In this document: piece by piece, positions 28,461 through 61,076 of the stretch
Layout of the letters: every line of letters begins with the position of its first letter
How positions within the stretch are numbered: position 1 is the first letter of the stretch
Origin: an uncultured Verrucomicrobiota bacterium
GTDB taxonomy: Bacteria; Verrucomicrobiota; Verrucomicrobiia; Palsa-1439
NCBI GenBank assembly: GCA_964533295.1
Contig: CAZHLM010000003.1
Location: forward strand, 34,281-95,368
Direction: 5' to 3'
DNA: 61,088 nt
Made by a program: the position numbers and the translations under genes
The notes under the pieces: generated by a model
Told to the model about the DNA's origin: nothing
Seen by the model: only the letters and a program-made list of their open reading frames with translations
The model's database searches: none

Positions 28461-30398
28461 TCAGGGAACAACACGTACCCGGTAGAACTGGTTGGTCAGC
28501 AGCGCGCCGCCACTGTGCCGGTAGTTGGTGCTGGTGGTGGTGGTAAAAATCTGGCCGCTCAGGTTCGTGAACACGCCACCGCCGAGTTCCCCGGTGTGTT
28601 GGACGATGTTGGTCCGCGCGAGCGCCGTCTGCCACGTCACGTGGATGTCGTTTCCGATCCGCTCGATCGCGGTAATTCGCAGCAGCGAATCGGGGTCGGT
28701 CGGATCGGTGCCGGCGCGGAATTCCGCGCCGTCGGTCTGACCGTCGCCGTCCGCATCCTCGTCGGCGCTGGGTCGCAACGGCGGCAGGCCGTAGAGTTGT
28801 TCCCAGTCATTCGGCAGAGCATCTCCGTCGGCATCCAGCCCCGGAGTCAACACCACCGCGCCCGTGGTCAAGGCGCCGCCGCTCCAGATGAACCGCGCGC
28901 AGGAGTTGGTCACGACGAGCCGGTCAACGTGGAGAGTGCCGCCGCCGAGCGTGAAGGTTCCGGTCTGCACATTCAACGGCGCGGTCCCGGTGGCGTTGGT
29001 CACCACCACATCGCCGCCGGTTTGGTGGACCAAGCCGGTGGCCGTACAGGCGGCGTTGCCGAGGAGGAAATGTTCAAGCGCGCGAATCGAACCACCGGCG
29101 ATCGTGAACGTGCCGACCGAGCCGGCTTGGGTGCCGGCTTGCAGGCGGCGGGTACGGATGACGCCGTTGGAAACGGTCAATTCGCCCGCGCCACCGTAGC
29201 CGACGATGACATGGCCGTTGGAGTTGGTGGCCAGCAACTGACCACCGGTGATCCATGCGGCGGCGGTCGCGCCCGGGCCGTCGCCGATGCCGTAGCCGTT
29301 GGCGCAAACCAGCACGCCGTTGGTCAGCCGCAACGTCCCGCGCGTACCGGCCTGGAAGCCGAGGCTCAGGTCCGGCAAGGCCACCGTTCCGCCCTGCACC
29401 GTCAACGTTCCCTCGCCCGTCTGGCCGACGATGGCGACGCCGTTACTGATGCCGACCTGCCCGGCGCTGACGATCAGGTGCCCGTCCACGAACAAACCGG
29501 TATCACTGGTGACGGTGGCGGGTGAGTTGGTAAGCACGACCTGGCCGCCGGTCAGCCAGACCGCACCGCTGCCACCATTCCCGCCCACTTCGAGAAGCGG
29601 ACCGGCGGCAAACGTGCCACCGCGCACCGTCAGTGTGCCGGTTCCCCCCGACCGACCGATATCCACCCAGTACGCCGCCACCAACCCGTTCGACAACGTC
29701 AATTGTCCGGAGCCCGTCAGGCCAATGAGCAACTCGGCGCTGAGGTTGGTGTTCAGCAACGAACCGCCGGTGACCCAGACCATGCCCGTCCCTGTGCCTG
29801 CCGCGGGCACCTGGCACTTTCGTTCCACCTCAACGCGCCCGCTCGAGATCGTGAGTGTGGACGGCGGGCGCAGGCTGATGCCCAGGGTGCGCGTCGCCAG
29901 CGTGCCTCCGCGCACCTGAACGGCCACGGGATTGACGCCGCCGAGCTGAGTGGTTCCCAACGGGACGCGCAACACGCCCCCCTCCCGAAACTCCACCAAC
30001 CCATCCACGTCGGCTCGGCCCTGGACCTGCACGACGCCATTGGTCAGCCGCAACGCGCTGGCGGTGGCCATGGTCAGGTTGCTGCGAATCAACAGCGGGA
30101 CCAGCGCCCCCGAGTTCGCCACGGCCAGCGTGTTCGTTGCGCCACCAACTCCCACGATAACCAAATTGCTAATTGTCAACGTCTGCGGATGAAACTGCGC
30201 CGTCACATCATCAATCGTCACCGTCTTGGTGAAGGCGTTGCCGATTCGACAGACCGCCTGCGTCGCCGCCGGCAACCCCTGCGACCAGTTCGCTGCCACG
30301 TCCCAGAAGCCACTGCCCGTATTGACCCAGTTATTCGTCTGCGCCCCCACCCCAGCGGCGCCGAGAAGCATCGCTCCGATGATCCACCACCTGTGCAT
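28461..30398 (-). CDS. Secreted beta-strand repeat protein (T5SS/PEP-CTERM-associated-repeat-like) with conserved C-terminal module
   Basis: Start reassigned to ATG 30398 (signal peptide MHRWWIIGAMLLGAAGVGA); repeated G-x-G-x-L-T-[LV]-x-x-G units; DxDGD tail. Confidence 0.78.
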   Translation of the reverse strand: MHRWWIIGAMLLGAAGVGAQTNNWVNTGSGFWDVAANWSQGLPAATQAVCRIGNAFTKTVTIDDVTAQFHPQTLTISNLVIVGVGGATNTLAVANSGALVPLLIRSNLTMATASALRLTNGVVQVQGRADVDGLVEFREGGVLRVPLGTTQLGGVNPVAVQVRGGTLATRTLGISLRPPSTLTISSGRVEVERKCQVPAAGTGTGMVWVTGGSLLNTNLSAELLIGLTGSGQLTLSNGLVAAYWVDIGRSGGTGTLTVRGGTFAAGPLLEVGGNGGSGAVWLTGGQVVLTNSPATVTSDTGLFVDGHLIVSAGQVGISNGVAIVGQTGEGTLTVQGGTVALPDLSLGFQAGTRGTLRLTNGVLVCANGYGIGDGPGATAAAWITGGQLLATNSNGHVIVGYGGAGELTVSNGVIRTRRLQAGTQAGSVGTFTIAGGSIRALEHFLLGNAACTATGLVHQTGGDVVVTNATGTAPLNVQTGTFTLGGGTLHVDRLVVTNSCARFIWSGGALTTGAVVLTPGLDADGDALPNDWEQLYGLPPLRPSADEDADGDGQTDGAEFRAGTDPTDPDSLLRITAIERIGNDIHVTWQTALARTNIVQHTGELGGGVFTNLSGQIFTTTTSTNYRHSGGALLTNQFYRVRVVP

Positions 30399-30445
30399 GC
30401 CCGTCCCCCTACCAAATTTTCGTGCGCCGGGCGAGCAGACTTTCC

Positions 30446-30473
30446 TTGCAAATCCCGCCGCGCCGCCTACCAT
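30446..30473 (+). promoter_or_regulatory. Putative sigma70 promoter for ispA
   Basis: TTGCAA (30446-51), 16 nt spacer, TACCAT (30468-73), 9 nt before the GTG start. Confidence 0.45.
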
Positions 30474-30482
30474 CCGCGCTCC

Positions 30483-31349
30483 GTGAAGCCTTTCTCTCTG
30501 GACGATTATCTGCGGCGCACCACCCAGCGCGTGGACGCGGCACTCGACAAACTGCTGCCCGCCGAGAACACGCCGCCCGCCACCCTCCACAAGGCGATGC
30601 GCTACTCGATTTTTGCCGGCGGCAAACGCATCCGCCCCGCGCTCTGTCTCGCCGCCTGCCAGGCCGTCGGCGGCCGCACCAAAGCCGCGCTGCCGCTGGC
30701 GTGCGCCGTCGAGTGCATCCACACCTACTCGCTGATTCACGACGACCTGCCGTGCATGGACGACGATGATTTCCGCCGCGGCAAGCCGACGAACCACAAA
30801 GTCTTCGGCGAAGGCATCGCCGTGCTGGCCGGGGATGCGTTGCTCACCCACGCCTTCACCCTCGTCGCCCGCGATGTCCGGTACGTCAAAGAACTCGCCC
30901 TGGCCGCCGGCAGTCTGCGGTTGATTGCCGGCCAGGTGCAGGATTTGGAAAACGAAAGCCGGCAAGCCACGCTGACCGAAGTCAAAACCACCCACCTCAA
31001 CAAAACCGCCGCGCTGATCATGGCCAGCATTCGATTGGGCGCCATGGCCGGCAACGCCACGCCCGGCGAACTGAAACGACTCACCAAGTACGGCGAGGAT
31101 CTGGGGCTTGCGTTTCAGGTGGTGGACGACGTTCTCGACGTGACGAGCACGAAAGAAGTCATGGGCAAAAGCGTCGGTGCCGACGCCAAGAATCAGAAGA
31201 GCACGTACCCGAAACTGCTCGGCGTGGACGGCAGCCGCCGGTACGCCGCCGACCTGATCGCCGACGCCCACCGGCAGTTAAGCGGCTTCGGCCCGGCCGC
31301 CCAACCACTCCGCGCGATCGCCGATTTCTTCCTCACGCGGCAGAACTAG
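30483..31349 (+). CDS. ispA: Polyprenyl (farnesyl/geranylgeranyl) diphosphate synthase
   Basis: GGKRIRP, HDDLPCMDDDDFRRG, KTAAL, FQVVDDVLD; GTG start at 30483. Confidence 0.93.
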   Translation: MKPFSLDDYLRRTTQRVDAALDKLLPAENTPPATLHKAMRYSIFAGGKRIRPALCLAACQAVGGRTKAALPLACAVECIHTYSLIHDDLPCMDDDDFRRGKPTNHKVFGEGIAVLAGDALLTHAFTLVARDVRYVKELALAAGSLRLIAGQVQDLENESRQATLTEVKTTHLNKTAALIMASIRLGAMAGNATPGELKRLTKYGEDLGLAFQVVDDVLDVTSTKEVMGKSVGADAKNQKSTYPKLLGVDGSRRYAADLIADAHRQLSGFGPAAQPLRAIADFFLTRQN

Positions 31350-31369: not shown

Positions 31370-31498
31370 GTGGGAGGGGCTTGCGCCCGCCACTTTCTCG
31401 GAAAAGCCGGTGGGCCGAGCGTCCCCGCGAGGCGGGGCGTGACACTCCGCTCGCGGCGCCGCTCGCGCCACCGGTCGCGCCCGGAAGGGCGCTGCCAC
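31370..31498. repeat. Cluster of REP-like palindromes between convergent genes
   Basis: GTGGGAGGGGCTTGCGCCCGCCAC hairpin (31370-93), imperfect inverted pair 31409-31472, and a 23/24 reverse-complement match (31475-98) to the 24-mer at 43751 and 61053. Confidence 0.75.
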
Positions 31499-31551
31499 AA
31501 CAGCAGTTTGGGCTTTGGCGCGGGTTGCGAAACGGGTGTCGCCGCCGCTCG

Positions 31552-33015
31552 TCACCGCTGAAGTCGAACACGATAAAAGCCGGCGGTCTCTATGCTCACC
31601 GTGGTCTCACCCGTCGCGGCGCAGACGATGTTCGTGTGCGGTTGCCATTGGCCGGTGGCGATGTCGGGGCGGGTCTCGACGATGTACTGGCGACCGGCCG
31701 AGGTTGTGAACGTGAGGTTGCTGGCGGTGATGGCGGTGATGCGCAACGCGCTGAGCGCGTTCAACGGATGGGTGCCGGCCAGAAACTCCTGCCGGTGCGT
31801 GAACCCGTCGCCGTCGAGATCGTCGCCGGGTTCACCGGGGTACAACTGCTCGAACCAGTCCGGCAGGCCATCGGCGTCACTGTCCTTCGCCACGATCTGG
31901 TAAATGCGGCCGTTGCCGCGATGGGCCACGTACAACTCGCCACATTCATCTTCGCCAAACGTGCTGATCCCGAAATCCGCGAAATCCAGCGGCGTGCCCA
32001 CTGTCCATACCCCGGCAGCTTCCGTCGCCGCCCAAATCCGACTGGAACAGTAGTCGGCGAAGAAGTACCGGCCCACCAGCGGCGGGATGCGGCTGCCGCG
32101 GTAGCGATAGCCGCCGGTAATGGACCAGCATGGTCCCGGCGCGACGTGATCGTAGGTGATAATCGGGCGCGTCATGGCCGCCGTCGCGCACGCGGTTGCG
32201 CAGGTGTTCGACAGGACGCCTTCCATGCATTTCCAGCCGTAGTTTTGGCCGCCGAGACTACCGGCCGTTTGAAAGTTCACTTCTTCCTGCGCGTCCTGGC
32301 CGACATCGGCGATGAACAGGTCGCCCGTGTCGCGGTCGAAGCTGAACCGAAACGGATTGCGCAAGCCGGTCGCCCAGATTTCCGGCCGCGCCCCCGCTGC
32401 GCTCACAAATGGATTGTCGGGCGGGATCGCATACGGCAGCGCCGAGTTGACGTCAATCCGCACCATTTTGCCCAGGAGCGTGCCGAGATCTTGCGAGTTG
32501 TTGTTGGGGTCACAGGTGCCGCCACCGTCACCGGGCGCAAAATAGAGATAGCCGTCCGGCCCGAATTGGATGCCGCCGCCGTTGTGATTGTCCTGGCCCG
32601 GATGCGCAACCCGGATGATCTCCACGCCGGTGGCGGGGTTAACGACGTTGGTGGTCGGCGGCGCGGCGGTGTACCGCCACACGACGTTGCTGCTGCCGTT
32701 GGCGTTGGTGAAATAGACAACGAAATGTCCGTTGGTCCGGTAGCCTGGATGAAATGCGAGACCGAGCAATCCCTGTTCCCCGCTAAACAACGTCTGCCCG
32801 GTGATGTCGAGGAACGCCGTCGCCAGCAGGTTCGTCCCCACGATCACCCGCACGCGGCCGGCCTGTTCAACGACGAACAATCGGCCCGAGCCGTCCCGCG
32901 CGCTGGCGATGTCCACCGGCTGCGCCAACCCGGCGACGATCTCGTGCAGTTGAAACTCCTGCGCCGCCACCCAGGTGGCGACCCCGCAAATCAGTCCGAT
33001 CCACACGCGCCACAT
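31552..33015 (-). CDS. Secreted PQQ-dependent sugar dehydrogenase (Gdh-B/YliI-type beta-propeller) with conserved C-terminal module
   Basis: LFVVEQAG, GEQGLLGLAFHP, NHNGGGIQFGPDGYLY, GLRNPFRFSFD, DVGQ, NYGW; start ATG 33015. Confidence 0.9.
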   Translation of the reverse strand: MWRVWIGLICGVATWVAAQEFQLHEIVAGLAQPVDIASARDGSGRLFVVEQAGRVRVIVGTNLLATAFLDITGQTLFSGEQGLLGLAFHPGYRTNGHFVVYFTNANGSSNVVWRYTAAPPTTNVVNPATGVEIIRVAHPGQDNHNGGGIQFGPDGYLYFAPGDGGGTCDPNNNSQDLGTLLGKMVRIDVNSALPYAIPPDNPFVSAAGARPEIWATGLRNPFRFSFDRDTGDLFIADVGQDAQEEVNFQTAGSLGGQNYGWKCMEGVLSNTCATACATAAMTRPIITYDHVAPGPCWSITGGYRYRGSRIPPLVGRYFFADYCSSRIWAATEAAGVWTVGTPLDFADFGISTFGEDECGELYVAHRGNGRIYQIVAKDSDADGLPDWFEQLYPGEPGDDLDGDGFTHRQEFLAGTHPLNALSALRITAITASNLTFTTSAGRQYIVETRPDIATGQWQPHTNIVCAATGETTVSIETAGFYRVRLQR

Positions 33016-33083
33016 GGCCGAACCATAAACAACTTCCGCCAAAACACCAACACGAGTTTTACCTTCCCCGCCCGGCTGGCATT

Positions 33084-42104: not shown

Positions 42105-44348
42105 TCAGCTCTCCCGAATCTCGCACGCCAACTCGCGCCGCAACGCCTGTTTCAACTGCTCATGCGCGGCGTTGACTTCCGCGTCCGTCAACGTGCGGTC
42201 CGCGGCCCGGTACGTCAGCGAATAGGCCACCGACTTCTTGCCCGTCGGAATCACTCCGCCCCGGAAAATATCAAACAGCGCCACCTGCTCCAAGTTTTTA
42301 TTCCGATGCTTCTCCACCACCGCCAACACCGCGGCGTGGGTCACTTCTTCCGCCACCACCAACGCCACGTCCCGCACCACGGCCGGATGTTTCGGCAACT
42401 CGCGGTACTGTTTCTCCGCGCGCGGCGCCGCCAACACCGGCTCCAAGTCCAACTCCGCCACCGCCACCGCGTCGCCCAAATCCAGGCGCTTCGCCTCCCA
42501 TCCCGAAATCTGTTTCACTTCACCCGGCAATCCCAACTCCTCCAGTGCGCCTTTTAGGTCGAAGTAATCCACCTTCTCCGTCCGCTCCCAATCCCCTGTC
42601 GTCCGCCGTCCCGTCGCCACCAATGCCAACCGCAACGTCTCCCGCCCCGTGGCATCAAACACCCGTCCGATCTCGAACAACCTCACATCGTACTGATGCC
42701 GCGCGACGTTCGTCCGCACGTTCTCCAACAGTCCCGGCACCAAGCTGCTGCGCAACGCGGTCATGTCCGCGTTCAACGGATTTTGCAACTTCAACGCGCC
42801 GTCGTGCACCATCGTCTGATTCACCGCCTCGTGGTACCCCAGCGCCGTCAACTGCCGCCGCAACTCCATCAACCGATCCCAACGCTCATCAAATGCCGAC
42901 ACCGCCGGCCGCGCCGGCTGCATCCGCGCCGCAATCTTCTCCACCCCGTAAATCCGGCACACCTCCTCGATCAAATCCGCCTCCCGCTCCAAATCCACCC
43001 GAAACGTCGGCGCCTCCACCTCCAACCCGCTCGCGTCCTCGCCGACCACGACCAGCCCCAAACTCACGAAAATCCGCCGCACTTCTGCCGGCGGGACGTC
43101 CACACCCAACACGCGATTCACCTGACCGTGCCGGCACCGCACCCGCCGCCGCGTCACCGGCTGGGCGCACACATCCACCAGCGGTCCCGCCTCCCCACCG
43201 GCCACCTCCCGAATCAACTGCGCCGCCCGATCACTCGCCCACACCACCCCGCCAATGTCCGCCCCTCGTTCAAACCGGTAACTCGACTCGCTGGCCAGTC
43301 CGGTGCGCTTCGAGGTCTGCCGCACATTGCCGGGCTGAAACCACGCGCTCTCCAGCAACACATCCACCGTCGCCGGGTTGATCTCCGATTCCTTTCCGCC
43401 CATGATCCCCGCCAACGCCACCGCCCGATCCGCATCCGCAATCACCAACATCTCCGCGCTCAACTCGTGCGCACTGTCGTCCAATGCCACAAACCGCTCC
43501 CCCACCCGCGCGCGCCGCACGACGATTCTGCCGCCGTGCAACCGCCGGTAATCAAATGCATGCAACGGATGCCCGCATTCCAACAACACGTAATTGGTCA
43601 CATCCACCACGTTGTTGATCGAACGCATCCCCACCTTCTCCAACGCACCCCGCAACCAAGCCGGCGACGGCCCAATCTTCACCCCGGTAATCAACCGCGC
43701 CGTGTACCGCGGACACAGATCCAGCGCTTCGACCGCGACCAAGTCCGATGGTGGGAGCGCCCTTCCGGGCGCGACCTCCGGCAGTCGCAACACATTCCCC
43801 GTCAACGCCGCCACCTCCCGCGCAATCCCAATCACGCTCAACCAATCCGGCCGATTCGGCGTCACCTCGATATCGAACAGCGCATCGCCCGGCCCCATGT
43901 ATTCGGCGAACTTCATCCCCACCGGTGCGTCCGCCGGCAAAATCAACAACCCATCCTCCCCTTTCGGCAACCCCAACTCCTCCGCCGAACACATCATCCC
44001 CTGCGACAACTCGCCACGCAGCTTCGATTCCTTGATCGTGAACCCGGCCGGCATCTCCGCTCCCGGCAACGCCAACGGCACCTTGTCGCCCACCTGGTAA
44101 TTCTTCGCCCCGCACACAATTTGCCGCTCGCTCGTCCCGTCAAACACCCGGCAAACCGACAACTTGTCCGCGTTGGGATGTTTTACCGACGACAAAATCT
44201 GCGCCACCACCACCCGCGCCGGTATCTTCCCGCCGAGCGGGACCACGTCCTCCACCTCGATCCCCGCAAACGTCAACCTCTCCGCCAACTCCCCCGCCGA
44301 CCACGGAACGTCCACATACTGCTTCAACCAGTTGTACGTGAATTTCAT
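42105..44348 (-). CDS. pheT: Phenylalanine--tRNA ligase beta subunit
   Basis: MKFTYNWLK, HPNADKL, CGAKN, TPNRPD, SYRFERG, READLIEEV, FDX-ACB C-terminus. Confidence 0.98.
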   Translation of the reverse strand: MKFTYNWLKQYVDVPWSAGELAERLTFAGIEVEDVVPLGGKIPARVVVAQILSSVKHPNADKLSVCRVFDGTSERQIVCGAKNYQVGDKVPLALPGAEMPAGFTIKESKLRGELSQGMMCSAEELGLPKGEDGLLILPADAPVGMKFAEYMGPGDALFDIEVTPNRPDWLSVIGIAREVAALTGNVLRLPEVAPGRALPPSDLVAVEALDLCPRYTARLITGVKIGPSPAWLRGALEKVGMRSINNVVDVTNYVLLECGHPLHAFDYRRLHGGRIVVRRARVGERFVALDDSAHELSAEMLVIADADRAVALAGIMGGKESEINPATVDVLLESAWFQPGNVRQTSKRTGLASESSYRFERGADIGGVVWASDRAAQLIREVAGGEAGPLVDVCAQPVTRRRVRCRHGQVNRVLGVDVPPAEVRRIFVSLGLVVVGEDASGLEVEAPTFRVDLEREADLIEEVCRIYGVEKIAARMQPARPAVSAFDERWDRLMELRRQLTALGYHEAVNQTMVHDGALKLQNPLNADMTALRSSLVPGLLENVRTNVARHQYDVRLFEIGRVFDATGRETLRLALVATGRRTTGDWERTEKVDYFDLKGALEELGLPGEVKQISGWEAKRLDLGDAVAVAELDLEPVLAAPRAEKQYRELPKHPAVVRDVALVVAEEVTHAAVLAVVEKHRNKNLEQVALFDIFRGGVIPTGKKSVAYSLTYRAADRTLTDAEVNAAHEQLKQALRRELACEIRES
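43751..43774. repeat. REP-like 24-mer embedded in pheT coding sequence
   Basis: GTGGGAGCGCCCTTCCGGGCGCGA, identical to intergenic copy at 61053-61076. Confidence 0.8.
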
Positions 44349-44385: not shown

Positions 44386-44616
44386 GCCGAATGACCGGGT
44401 CGATCTCGTACTGAATAGAGCTTTTTGCTTGCCTTTTCGCGATGTCTTATGGCATAAGCACCACTTGTACGGGGGCGCAGTGAAGTCTGGTGGCAATCTT
44501 ACTTCCGCGCAGATGTGTTTCGCCTTCTGGCCTCGTGGCGGACCAAGGACTCACTGTTGTTGCACCCCATCTTCGCACTCAAGCCGTTTGCAACCTTCAT
44601 AAGGAGCGGTACCGTC

Positions 44617-45963
44617 ATGAAACGTCATAAATCTATTGTCCGTCTAATCGGAGTCTTGGCCGGGATTGTTAGTTTGCCTGCCCAAGGAGTGGTCGTCTCG
44701 TTTGACCAAGTCGACTGGGGAGACGGCAGCGGGGGATACCAAGTGCAGGATTCCGCATGGGGCCAAGCCACCATCCAACTCCAAGCGGCCGACCTCGGCC
44801 TCCTTGCGTCCGATGGCCTCGGCGGCTATTACGGCTACGTCAACATCACCACCGACACGAGCGCCTTCGGCGGCTCGGCCAATAACTGGGCCGTGGAGAA
44901 TCTCGCGTTGCATTTCAACGACCTCGCCGCCCTCGGTGGCGGTCAAATGGCCACCACTGTCGAGTTCGACCTGGGCGTGTCCATCGGCACGGACGTGACC
45001 AGCTTGAACTACGCGCTCGACTTGACGCCGGCGCCACTGGCTGTGCCAACCAGCCCGTTTGTCGCGACCGACGTCGGCGAGGCCGAACGGCTCACCGGCA
45101 TCACAAGCGAGATGTCTTTGACAGGTGGCGGTCCCGGATTGCGTCCCGCACAAAATTTCCGCGGAGCAAACGCCGGCACAGCGGCCATCCGCGGTGGTTC
45201 GATCGCCATCAACGAAACGAACGTCCCGGCCGTCAACGAATCTCTCAACGGTTGCGCCCCCGGCGCGGCTGCCCGTTCGCTGGCGTACCTCACGCAGGCC
45301 GGCGCAATCGGCATGACCCAGACCGCGCAACAGGCGTACGGCGCCCTGACCAATGCCATGAACTCCTCGACCGGCCCCGGCAGCACGGGCACGGGGTCAC
45401 TTGGCACCAACAGTCCATTCACCAATGGCAAGGACGCGTTCGTCGCTTCGAACTCACTCAACGTCGCCCGCACCACGTTCACCAACACCCCGCTCTATCA
45501 AGGGTTCTTCGGAACCAACGCCGGCAGCTTTGCCGGGGCGATCAGCGCGCTGAACCGCACCAGCGACGTCGAGGTGTATCTTGATTGGGGGCGGACCTTC
45601 GTGCAGACCAACATCACCGGCCCCGTCTCCGGCACCAACGTGCTCTACGGCGCGCACATGGCGTTTGTCGTCTCCATTACTCCGAACACGAACGCCGCGG
45701 GCCAGATCGTCTCCTACACGTTGCGTTACATGGATGACCCACGCCAGCAGGATGGTAGTGCCTCGAACCAAGTCCACGCGATGACCATCCTCCCTGATGG
45801 TCGCGATGTCCGCTACACCAACTCCAACGTTCAATTGGCCGGGGTGGTTGGTTTTTTCATCGAAGATGTCACTACGGCCGCCGTGCCGGAACCAAGTCTC
45901 TTCGGGCTGTTCGCGCTGGGGACCGGCCTCGCGGCGTGGTTGCGCCGACGACGAAACACATGA
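44617..45963 (+). CDS. PEP-CTERM protein with possible papain-fold catalytic motifs
   Basis: AAGGAG SD, signal peptide, C-terminal VPEPS + TM helix + RRRR; internal NGCAPGAAARSLAYL and AHMAFVV motifs. Confidence 0.9.
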   Translation: MKRHKSIVRLIGVLAGIVSLPAQGVVVSFDQVDWGDGSGGYQVQDSAWGQATIQLQAADLGLLASDGLGGYYGYVNITTDTSAFGGSANNWAVENLALHFNDLAALGGGQMATTVEFDLGVSIGTDVTSLNYALDLTPAPLAVPTSPFVATDVGEAERLTGITSEMSLTGGGPGLRPAQNFRGANAGTAAIRGGSIAINETNVPAVNESLNGCAPGAAARSLAYLTQAGAIGMTQTAQQAYGALTNAMNSSTGPGSTGTGSLGTNSPFTNGKDAFVASNSLNVARTTFTNTPLYQGFFGTNAGSFAGAISALNRTSDVEVYLDWGRTFVQTNITGPVSGTNVLYGAHMAFVVSITPNTNAAGQIVSYTLRYMDDPRQQDGSASNQVHAMTILPDGRDVRYTNSNVQLAGVVGFFIEDVTTAAVPEPSLFGLFALGTGLAAWLRRRRNT

Positions 45964-45967
45964 CTGT

Positions 45968-46990
45968 TCAAAACTGCTCCAGAAACCGCACGTCGTTTTC
46001 CGTGAACAGCCGGATATCCGTGATCCCGTAGCGGATCATCGCCAGCCGTTCGATCCCGAAACCGAACGCCCAACCAGTGTACGCATCGTCGGGATAACCC
46101 ACCGCCCGAAACACGTTCGGGTCCACCATCCCGCAGCCGGCAATCTCGATCCATTCCTTGCCGCGCGCGCGGAAATGCGGCGTGCTCAGGTCAATCTCGA
46201 AACTCGGTTCCGTGTACGGAAAGAAATGCGGTCGAAACCGCACCTTCGTGTCCGGGTCGAGCAACTGCCGGAAGAAAAACTCCACCGTGCCCTTCAAATC
46301 GGCCACCGTCACGTTTTCATCCACGTACAACCCCTCGATCTGATGAAACGTCGGACTGTGCGTCGCGTCGGGATTGTCGCGGCGGAAAACCCGACCGGGC
46401 GCGACGATGCGAATCGGCGGTTTCTGCCGCATCATCGTGCGGATTTGCACCGGACTGGTGTGCGTTCGCAACAAGTACCGGCCGTACTTCTCATGCGGCG
46501 GCAAATCCACGTACAACGTGTCCTGAATGTCCCGCGCCGGGTGATTGGCCGGCGTGTTCAGCGCATCGAAACAATGCCACTCATCCTCCATCTCCGGCCC
46601 ATCCTCCACCGCAAACCCCATCCGCCGGAAAATTTTCACCGTCTCATCAAAAATCTGCGTCAACGGATGCAACCGCCCCAGCCGATGCCGCCGACCCGGC
46701 AACGTCGTGTCAATGGCCGGACCGCCGGCCGACGCTTTCGCTTCCAACTGCTCGCGCTTGGCCGCAACCGCGGCGCTCAACGCATGTTTGACCTCGTTGG
46801 CCAGCCGGCCAATCACCGGCTTTTGTTCCTTCGGCAAGCCGCCCAACTGACTCAGCAGGCCGGTCACCTTCCCCTGCGCGCCGAGATACCGGGCTTTCAC
46901 CTGTTCCAACGCCGGCAGGTCCGCGCAACCGGCAATCTCCGCCTCCGCTGCCGCGCGCGCGTCACGCAATTGTTGTTCCAGCTCGCTCAT
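45968..46990 (-). CDS. pheS: Phenylalanine--tRNA ligase alpha subunit
   Basis: GRLHPL, HPARDIQDT, LRTHTSPVQIR, HSPTFHQIEGL, FPYTEPS, FGFGIERL; start ATG 46990. Confidence 0.98.
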   Translation of the reverse strand: MSELEQQLRDARAAAEAEIAGCADLPALEQVKARYLGAQGKVTGLLSQLGGLPKEQKPVIGRLANEVKHALSAAVAAKREQLEAKASAGGPAIDTTLPGRRHRLGRLHPLTQIFDETVKIFRRMGFAVEDGPEMEDEWHCFDALNTPANHPARDIQDTLYVDLPPHEKYGRYLLRTHTSPVQIRTMMRQKPPIRIVAPGRVFRRDNPDATHSPTFHQIEGLYVDENVTVADLKGTVEFFFRQLLDPDTKVRFRPHFFPYTEPSFEIDLSTPHFRARGKEWIEIAGCGMVDPNVFRAVGYPDDAYTGWAFGFGIERLAMIRYGITDIRLFTENDVRFLEQF

Positions 46991-47059
46991 GAAACCGGCG
47001 GCGACGGTAACGAAACGCTCTGGCGCGCGCAAGATTCAATATGCTACGCTGCTCGGCGC

Positions 47060-60171: not shown

Positions 60172-61026
60172 TCAAATCTCCCGATCGGCAAACACCAGAT
60201 ACGCAACCACGACCACGACCGTTGTGTAGGCCACGCCGTAGAGCGCCACGTGCGCGCAATGCTCCCACGGAATCGCGTTCCCGAGGATGATGTCGTCGGC
60301 GACATTGAACGCGCCCAGATCCGGGATGACCGTCAGCAACCAGCGAATCACGCGGCCTTCGCCGAGGATTTCCACGACGGCCCCCCGCAAGTGACCGGCC
60401 AGGAACGCCATGAATCCCATCGCCACGTTGAACACCATCGAGGTCGAAACCGTCGAGAACAACAAGGTAATCGCCGCCAGCAAGCACAACTTCACAAACG
60501 TCAACGCCACGCCCTTGACCAAATCCCCATCGCGCGCCTCCCGATGAATCCGCGTCACCGTCGTCGCCGCCTCTTCCGCCGACAAGTTCTGGTCGAGCCG
60601 CGTTTCGGCCACCAGCCGGTTCTCCTTGAAGTACAACGCCGCGCCGAACATCACCGACATGACAACCACGCTCAGGAACACGAGCCAGAGGCTCCCGAGA
60701 TATTTCCCCAACAAAAACTCCCCCCGCCGCACCGGCTTGGCGAGGATGGTGTAGATCGTCCGGTTCTCCAACTCGGCCGGCAACAACTGCGCCGTCCCCA
60801 CAATCGCGATCAGCGTCCCAAATACCGAGATCGCCCCCAGACAGAAATCCTTCACGAACTTCAACTGCTCGCTGAAGGTGAACTGGGAGAAAAAACTCGC
60901 GCTCGCAATCACCACCAGCGCAAACACCAGCAGAATGTTGTACACCTTTTGCCGCAACGACTCGATGAACGTATTCGCCGCAATCGTTACGATTCTGCCG
61001 AAAGAAAACCCAACGCGTTCCGTCAT
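60172..61026 (-). CDS. ABC-2-type transporter permease (PilI/XapB-like)
   Basis: IAANTFIESLRQK, ELENRTIYTILAKPVRRGEFLLGKYLG, six TM segments. Confidence 0.85.
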   Translation of the reverse strand: MTERVGFSFGRIVTIAANTFIESLRQKVYNILLVFALVVIASASFFSQFTFSEQLKFVKDFCLGAISVFGTLIAIVGTAQLLPAELENRTIYTILAKPVRRGEFLLGKYLGSLWLVFLSVVVMSVMFGAALYFKENRLVAETRLDQNLSAEEAATTVTRIHREARDGDLVKGVALTFVKLCLLAAITLLFSTVSTSMVFNVAMGFMAFLAGHLRGAVVEILGEGRVIRWLLTVIPDLGAFNVADDIILGNAIPWEHCAHVALYGVAYTTVVVVVAYLVFADREI

Positions 61027-61052
61027 AAGCGCTCCGCCCGGCCCGTCTCCGT

Positions 61053-61076
61053 GTGGGAGCGCCCTTCCGGGCGCGA
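61053..61076. repeat. REP-like 24-mer, intergenic copy
   Basis: GTGGGAGCGCCCTTCCGGGCGCGA with GCGCCC/GGGCGC stem. Confidence 0.8.

Follow-up and report, generated by a model that had tools for sequence, protein, structure and literature searches.

Repetitive extragenic palindromes (REPs) are defined by a conserved 5' GT(A/G)G next to a palindrome, and Nunvar et al. (2013) reported different REP classes at orthologous loci of the REP-associated tyrosine transposase (RAYT) in related strains (PMC3686654). The REP/REPIN-RAYT systems of Pseudomonas were described by Bertels and Rainey in 2011 (PMC3116915). Intragenic REPs have also been documented: Di Nocera, De Gregorio and Rocco (2013) found them in several species, most numerously in Opitutus terrae of the Verrucomicrobia (PMC3733652, Additional file 3). 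The hosts include purL, an AcrB-type pump, uvrA, dnaE2 and helicases, as well as tRNA synthetase genes in other species, while pheT is not among them (PMC3733652). Such in-gene REPs encode 7-30 residues, in frame, as singlets or dimers, and were argued to be tolerated rather than functional (PMC3733652). In most O. terrae GTAG-20 elements, the GTAG head is replaced by GTGG, and a single case of different REPs at about the same site was given, in recB of two Xanthomonas species (PMC3733652). Here we describe a REP unit translated within pheT, the gene for the phenylalanine--tRNA ligase beta subunit, in an uncultured Verrucomicrobiota bacterium of the Palsa-1439 lineage. The stretch analysed, 61,088 nt of contig CAZHLM010000003.1 (assembly GCA_964533295.1), is referred to as the window.

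The pheT REP resembles those of O. terrae in its GT(A/G)G head, its in-frame position and the phylum of its host, whereas the present host belongs to an uncultured lineage of hot springs. The peptides GTGVSPV and TGGTPVP, encoded by O. terrae GTAG-19 elements (PMC3733652), recur in the pheT linkers of two relatives, P0028 and P0042. The pheT REP is a further example of in-gene REPs, which are already documented for Verrucomicrobia (PMC3733652). Unlike the single recB case (PMC3733652), a palindrome is found at one pheT site in eight lineages, representing several subfamilies, on the same strand and in the same frame. That several REP subfamilies recur at a single pheT site is a modestly interesting extension of the known pattern. 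The Pseudomonas elements (GTrGGAGCAAGGCTTGCCCGCGAT; PMC3686654, PMC3116915) share the GT(A/G)GGAGC head, a short G+C-rich hairpin and the GCGA tail with the window family, and in both there are hundreds of copies, mostly as inverted doublets, and a REP-flanked, single-copy Y1 transposase (RAYT). However, Pseudomonas REPs are overwhelmingly extragenic, while approximately one seventh of the sampled copies of the window family lie in coding-like open reading frames (ORFs). A preliminary description of this DNA compared the pheT repeat with Rickettsia palindromic elements (RPEs), which are likewise selfish palindromic DNA in frame in functional, often essential, proteins, tolerated in surface loops (PMC3733652). 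The comparison is apt as to how an in-gene palindrome works, but RPEs lengthen the host protein, whereas the pheT REP is present without added length. Nor is the element itself an RPE: these carry a CGTC tag (RPE-4 and RPE-6) or the longer RPE-1 palindrome and occur in Rickettsia (PMC3733652), while the present unit is 27 nt long, has a GTGG head and lies in a Verrucomicrobium.

A REP unit in the pheT reading frame

The pheT gene (42105..44348, - strand) encodes 747 residues from MKFTYNW, and the REP unit inside it occupies 43750..43776 (+), its GTGGGA head running antisense to pheT. Bases 43751-43776 agree with the family consensus GTGGGAGCGCCCTTCCGGGCGCGACC at 26 of 26 positions; at base 43750, the unit has G and the consensus T. 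The palindromic core, GCGCCC-TTCC-GGGCGC (43757..43772, +), consists of a 6-bp stem and a 4-nt loop that appears as GGAA in the pheT mRNA. The reverse complement of the REP reads GTC GCG CCC GGA AGG GCG CTC CCA, supplying pheT codons 192-199 (43752..43775, -). Translation confirms that these encode V192-A-P-G-R-A-L-P199 upstream of the CPRY motif (C212), as the preliminary description had stated. That description had also regarded GGA and AGG as unusual codons for this gene; this is correct for AGG (3 of 65 Arg codons) and incorrect for GGA (11 of 60 Gly codons). Also rare in pheT are CCA (2 of 38 Pro codons, being codons 199 and 200), CTC (2 of 80 Leu) and CCC (3 of 38 Pro). The codon bias of pheT favours G-ending codons, and the REP codons are atypical for the gene.

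A search of the window reproduced the reported matches of the pheT 24-mer to two other sites. The sequence GTGGGAGCGCCCTTCCGGGCGCGA is identical at 43751-43774 (+) and 61053-61076 (+) and recurs with one mismatch at 31475-31498 (-), compared with 0.00 chance matches expected from dinucleotide-preserving shuffles. The match between the pheT and 31475 copies extends over 26 nt (43751-43776), again with one mismatch. The copy at 61052..61076 (+), TGTGGGAGCGCCCTTCCGGGCGCGA, lies outside likely genes, 27-50 nt 5' of the start codon of a membrane-protein gene (60172..61026, -). The copy at 31471..31499 (-), whose one mismatch gives a GTGGCA head and which has a CCGG tail, is located in the gap from ORF 28461..31271 to ORF 31552..33042, where more G+C-rich hairpins adjoin. 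Here a REP-like hairpin, GTGGCGCGAGCGGCGCCGCGAGCG, is found directly 3' of the copy on its own strand and is followed by a CCCCGCCTCGCGGGG hairpin, making window positions 31400-31475 a small cluster of differing palindromes. No partner for the pheT REP was found anywhere in the window at up to 6 mismatches, and the pheT copy is a singlet.

A 22-mer scan covering one genome per species returned at least 90 loci and at least 113 copies with full flanks. Most of the copies listed are from Verrucomicrobiota metagenome-assembled genomes (MAGs), with others in Geomesophilobacter sediminis, Gammaproteobacteria and WOR-3. For the verrucomicrobial copies, the consensus reads ttGTGGGAGCGCCCTTCCGGGCGCGAccgg, and the head is GTGG in all aligned copies. 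Many copies form inverted doublets with 13-45 nt spacers (the REPIN arrangement), as seen in relatives at loci L001, L004, L009, L021, L025, L030, L057, L059 and L087. A Y1_Tnp gene (RAYT) at L053 is flanked by the pheT-type REP, and RAYTs at L011 and L220 are flanked by sister REP subfamilies; all three score above the Pfam Y1_Tnp cut-off. In addition to the three copies within the 61-kb window, further contigs from the same samples match at the REP alone. The pheT repeat is a bona fide REP of the GT(A/G)GGAGCG...CGCGAC(CGG) superfamily and belongs to a RAYT-associated family: it is a short stem-loop palindrome with a GT(A/G)G head and many dispersed copies. It departs from the typical REP in not being extragenic, as the two other window copies are, and from the REPIN-RAYT pattern in not being part of an inverted doublet, though the family forms doublets in relatives. 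The 22-mer core also occurs, identical and many times, in the cultured Geobacter relative Geomesophilobacter sediminis (L002, L005, L007, L011 and others) and in MAGs of Gammaproteobacteria and WOR-3 (L013, L069, L079; L027). The RAYTs flanked by the pheT-type family are only ~30% identical between Verrucomicrobia and Geomesophilobacter, and recent transfer of the whole system therefore does not account for the identical core.

The window PheT is 100% identical to a database protein from a 107.7-kb contig and is homologous along its length to solved bacterial PheRS beta subunits (best match 7N8Y_B, E = 1.7e-143). Pfam assigns tRNA_bind to residues 46-145, B3_4 to 212-384, B5 to 404-468, the tRNA_synthFbeta domain to 485-605 and FDX-ACB to 652-745, placing the REP-coded residues between tRNA_bind (the N-terminal B1/B2 part) and B3_4, 13 residues ahead of CPRY. 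In an AlphaFold2 model (mean predicted local distance difference test score, pLDDT, 83.7), residues 184-203 are mostly coil, between a helix (172-183) and a strand (204-206), with a mean pLDDT of 78 for block 191-200 as opposed to 90 and 87 in the adjoining blocks. Mapping onto this predicted structure, in the spirit of one of the checks proposed at the outset, locates the REP in a mostly coil interdomain stretch. The linker, previously described as variable, is hypervariable: it is the most variable part of the protein among 120 homologues, the remainder being 66-81% identical.

The pheT sequence was also found in independent assemblies from hot-spring and sediment metagenomes. Across 171 nt, assembly X2 is identical to the window, while X3 and X4 show 2 differences, none of which is in the REP. 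Assembly X6 differs at 6 of 96 nt, and none of the five differences listed falls in the REP; directly past the REP tail, the X6 contig continues differently from the window, and its apparent reading, L-P-A-E-A-P-K-F-A-P-G-R-A-L-P-P, is tentative. The REP junctions are the same in X1-X4, and the presence of an intact REP in independent metagenome assemblies excludes an assembly artefact. All strain-level contigs found carry the REP, which is intact in strains with 2-6% flank divergence. As ~0.6 substitutions are expected per 26 nt at this divergence, conservation among strains carries no weight.

Counting in-gene versus other copies, as had been proposed, showed that 41 of 292 exact copies at the sampled loci (~14%) are inside coding-like ORFs. 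These are taken as ORFs of at least 60 codons on both sides with a coding G+C pattern by codon position; the count is heuristic and some cases may be read-through between neighbouring genes. The in-gene REPs are 21 sense and 20 antisense, occur in all six frames and reveal no strand or frame preference. Pfam domain matches were obtained for 17 of 18 ORFs scanned, the hosts being purL, mutL, dnaE, acrB, trpE and a UvrD-like helicase, together with a class-V aminotransferase, peptidase U32, an RlmI-like methyltransferase and RAYT genes. In two MAGs, purL (L060:4598-4619, L062:1301-1322) contains this REP at one and the same position, read as VAPGRALP just as in pheT. An orthologous in-frame REP is thereby seen in a second essential gene. 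The RAYT genes carry their in-frame REP soon after the HUH motif (L053:7644-7668, L126:542-563, L080:7772-7793), and those of L053 and L080 are located directly before a conserved VMNSFKGY stretch, in opposite orientations. At L034:684-705, a REP doublet is read through in an ORF combining a BadF-type ATPase domain with SIS domains (glucokinase-regulator type), which may represent two genes fused by the repeat.

The pheT site in related lineages

Aligning PheT from close relatives, the first check proposed, revealed no indel. The linker comprises 17 residues in the window, 16 in P0002 (81% identity) and 17 in P0003 (78%). That of P0002, EVTTENTESTENV, is of the REP-free ancestral acidic type common to most homologues. 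The preliminary description would have been contradicted by relatives that lack the REP family and encode the same peptide with divergent synonymous sites; instead, P0002, the closest relative, combines a REP-free linker with copies of the pheT-type family at other loci of its genome (L009, L024, L029), and relatives with a similar linker peptide encode it by REPs of sister subfamilies. In the case of P0003, the linker (EVAPGAARPADELV) is encoded by DNA that agrees with the REP in 16 of 24 positions and is itself palindromic (GCGCCG-CGCC-CGGCGC), a diverged homologue of the window REP. As there is no net gain in length with respect to the nearest relatives, a simple recent insertion is not demonstrated, and the diverged palindrome at the same place in P0003 suggests the site was occupied before the window lineage and P0003 split. 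Of the proposal that selfish palindromic DNA had been absorbed into a protein, the real REP family and its translation in PheT are upheld, whereas simple insertion is not. A search of 5.8 billion proteins yielded no relative above 81% protein identity and hence no true empty site. A comparison of window positions 42105-44348 with L091 and L092 further shows pheT to be a mosaic, in which codons ~80-330 are most like P0003 (nucleotide identity in 30-codon windows reaches 96%) and the remaining codons most like P0002. Recombination in an essential gene between fairly distant lineages is suggested by this pattern.

A REP-like palindrome is present at the pheT site, on the same strand and in the same frame, in seven other lineages (eight including the window), and five of the seven are clear REPs of the superfamily with different palindromic cores. 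The shared frame is P-V-A-x-G-x-x-L-P, on the strand antisense to pheT and 0-5 codons past a conserved L-P-E. The antisense sequences are GTGGGA-GCGGCA-TTCC-TGCCGC-GACCGG in P0010 and L168, GTGGGA-GCGGCG-TCCC-CGCCGC-GACCGGG in P0117, GTAGAA-GCGGCG-TCCC-CGCCGC-GACCGA in P0008, GTGGGA-GCGGGC-TTCC-GCCCGC-GACCGG in P0047 and GTAGGA-GCCCCGAC-ATCGAG-GTCGGGGC-GACCGG in P0051. Five or more distinct REP cores, all of a single superfamily, are found at this site alongside the diverged palindrome of P0003. A metagenome scan with the cores GCGGCA-TTCC-TGCCGC and GCGGCG-TCCC-CGCCGC gave at least 120 loci and at least 138 copies, and only one of the loci listed is pheT. The abundance of these two cores, which account for four lineages, in unrelated contexts identifies them as ordinary REP subfamilies as opposed to products of local covariation. 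Since in-gene copies generally lack strand or frame bias, the uniform strand and frame in pheT need an explanation.

In the PheT tree, a single neighbour-joining tree without support values, the REP-bearing proteins are scattered and the nearest neighbour of each is REP-free. For P0010, P0051 and P0117, the nearest neighbours are the REP-free P0049, P0084 and P0089, respectively, whether judged globally or by the flanks. In the linker flanks, the REP-bearing PheTs show no more than the expected closeness to one another (p = 0.55). After this negative flank test, the idea that recombination had spread a single REP-bearing pheT segment was rejected, although short patches may still fit. The linker is shared in its entirety, including non-REP flanks (EA.PVAAGMPLPQDTVKV), by P0010, P0072 and L168.

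Other relatives have different inserts in the linker: a head-to-head GTAG REP dimer with a fold energy of -68 kcal/mol in P0018, a GTGVSPV...TGGTPVPL dimer in P0042 and P0028, an element of ~100 nt in P0004 and P0017, and another insert in P0118. Unrelated palindromic elements thus land in the same pheT loop in these relatives. The P0042 pheT also contains a second REP, GTGGGAGCGGCCTTCTGGCCGCGAC (L219:11598-11622), inserted cleanly near codon 532 and adding 27 nt, or nine codons (GRGQKAAPT), indicating that a single REP unit is frame-neutral.

Explanations for the occupied linker

The explanation we favour, and consider probable as a whole, is that a singlet REP is carried as an in-frame passenger in the linker, at a site older than the lineage, and that the present copy has been trimmed or renewed. 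The REP is most likely a passenger without a role in the enzyme, translated as approximately nine residues of a mostly coil stretch that would tolerate almost any sequence. All six reading frames of the REP are stop-free and the unit of 27 nt equals nine codons; it would persist because of these two properties and because the loop is unconstrained. The site would have been occupied first before the window lineage split from P0003, with the window copy trimmed or renewed later. Renewal could mean that a REP re-inserted into the same target, or that the 10-nt core, framed by the head and tail common to all subfamilies, was replaced as a short patch; either route would leave a copy still identical to the consensus. 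Common descent with core replacement, short-patch linker recombination or a sequence-defined target may each account for the uniform strand and frame. That the pheT linker renews its REPs, through RAYT integration in one orientation at a defined target or through overwriting of the 10-nt core by an active subfamily, is a tentative proposal.

Several observations weigh against the favoured explanation. There is no net insertion: with a linker no longer than that of REP-free relatives, pheT must have lost or exchanged approximately nine ancestral codons, and no intermediate was seen. The window copy matches the consensus at 26 of 26 bases while the P0003 homologue differs at 8 of 24, and simple vertical decay is insufficient to produce this. 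No RAYT gene was found in the 61-kb window. Within the ~1.7 Mb searched, the P0003, P0047 and P0051 cores turned up in pheT alone, and they may represent change in place with compensating stem mutations.

The alternative that survives best is repeated independent RAYT-driven insertion specific to site and strand, whereby the linker contains a preferred target, each lineage gains a REP subfamily of its own genome and the window copy is a recent arrival in place of older sequence. We regard this as possible but doubtful. It would account for the scatter of REP-bearing PheTs beside REP-free nearest neighbours and for the negative test for a shared local haplotype, as well as for the varying distance (0 to 5 codons) between L-P-E and the REP tail. 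The window, P0010 and P0117 copies are perfect matches to abundant subfamilies, and uniform strand and frame are expected of a sequence-defined target, in-gene REPs being generally without bias. However, no target motif was identified, and the ancestral residues have been replaced, not added to, in every case. The linker shared by P0010, P0072 and L168 with its non-REP flanks points to common descent or short-patch recombination instead, and to our knowledge site-specific transposition of REPs has never been shown.

A hairpin kept in pheT by selection, either as an mRNA structure pacing translation between two domains or controlling mRNA stability, or as a DNA site for RAYT or gyrase, is considerably less likely and in our view improbable. 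A palindrome does recur at the same position in eight lineages with differing, fully complementary stems, but most relatives, the closest included, have no palindrome there, and in other lineages this linker contains palindromic elements of unrelated types. The differing stems resemble compensatory change in a functional hairpin but were set aside as evidence of selection on structure, given that two of the variants are genome-wide REP subfamilies, abundant elsewhere. The mRNA loops, GGAA or GGGA, are of the stable GNRA type; local fold stability in the pheT mRNA is nevertheless ordinary for its composition, the difference from shuffles being not significant (z = -1.74). The unchanged REP in strains with diverged flanks would be in line with selection, but is uninformative given the ~0.6 substitutions expected. 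Finally, chance resemblance or an assembly chimera is suggested by a short, G+C-rich sequence, by metagenome assemblers breaking at REPs and by the departure of the X6 contig directly after the REP, and can be dismissed in view of the 0.00 matches expected in shuffles, the reading frame and PheT homology running on both sides and the common junctions of X1-X4.

Neighbouring genes and implications

The usual pheST pair is split in the window: pheS is located at 45968..47032 (-), and a PEP-CTERM protein gene on the other strand (482 residues, 44515..45963, +) separates it from pheT. Two relatives have a RAYT gene directly 5' of pheT, ~100-200 nt from its start (L092:2298-2792, -; L218:9431-9886, +), each flanked by its own GTAG REP family. 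The pheS-pheT interval seems to collect insertions in the window clade. Neither RAYT was retained as a local source of the pheT REP: that of L092, from the closest relative, is flanked by another family, GGTGTAGCCGCGCCTCTACGAGGCGCG, which is absent from the window, and that of L218 is flanked by GTAGCCGCGAGCCTGCTCGCGGC and not by the REP of its own pheT.

Taken alone, the pheT case adds one instance to a known curiosity, the translation of selfish palindromes as part of essential proteins. For annotators, it is a warning that odd, G+C-rich peptides in verrucomicrobial proteins, VAPGRALP, SRPEGRSH, WERPSGRD and VGAASPPRP among them, are repeat-derived. Its comparative value stems from a highly conserved essential gene, which gives exact positional homology beside REP-free sister lineages, and a follow-up with complete genomes could tell REP target specificity from replacement in place. 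If the linker does renew its REPs, orthologous in-gene REPs, held in register by a conserved essential protein, would naturally record the turnover of REPs and give direct access to the way in which they move.

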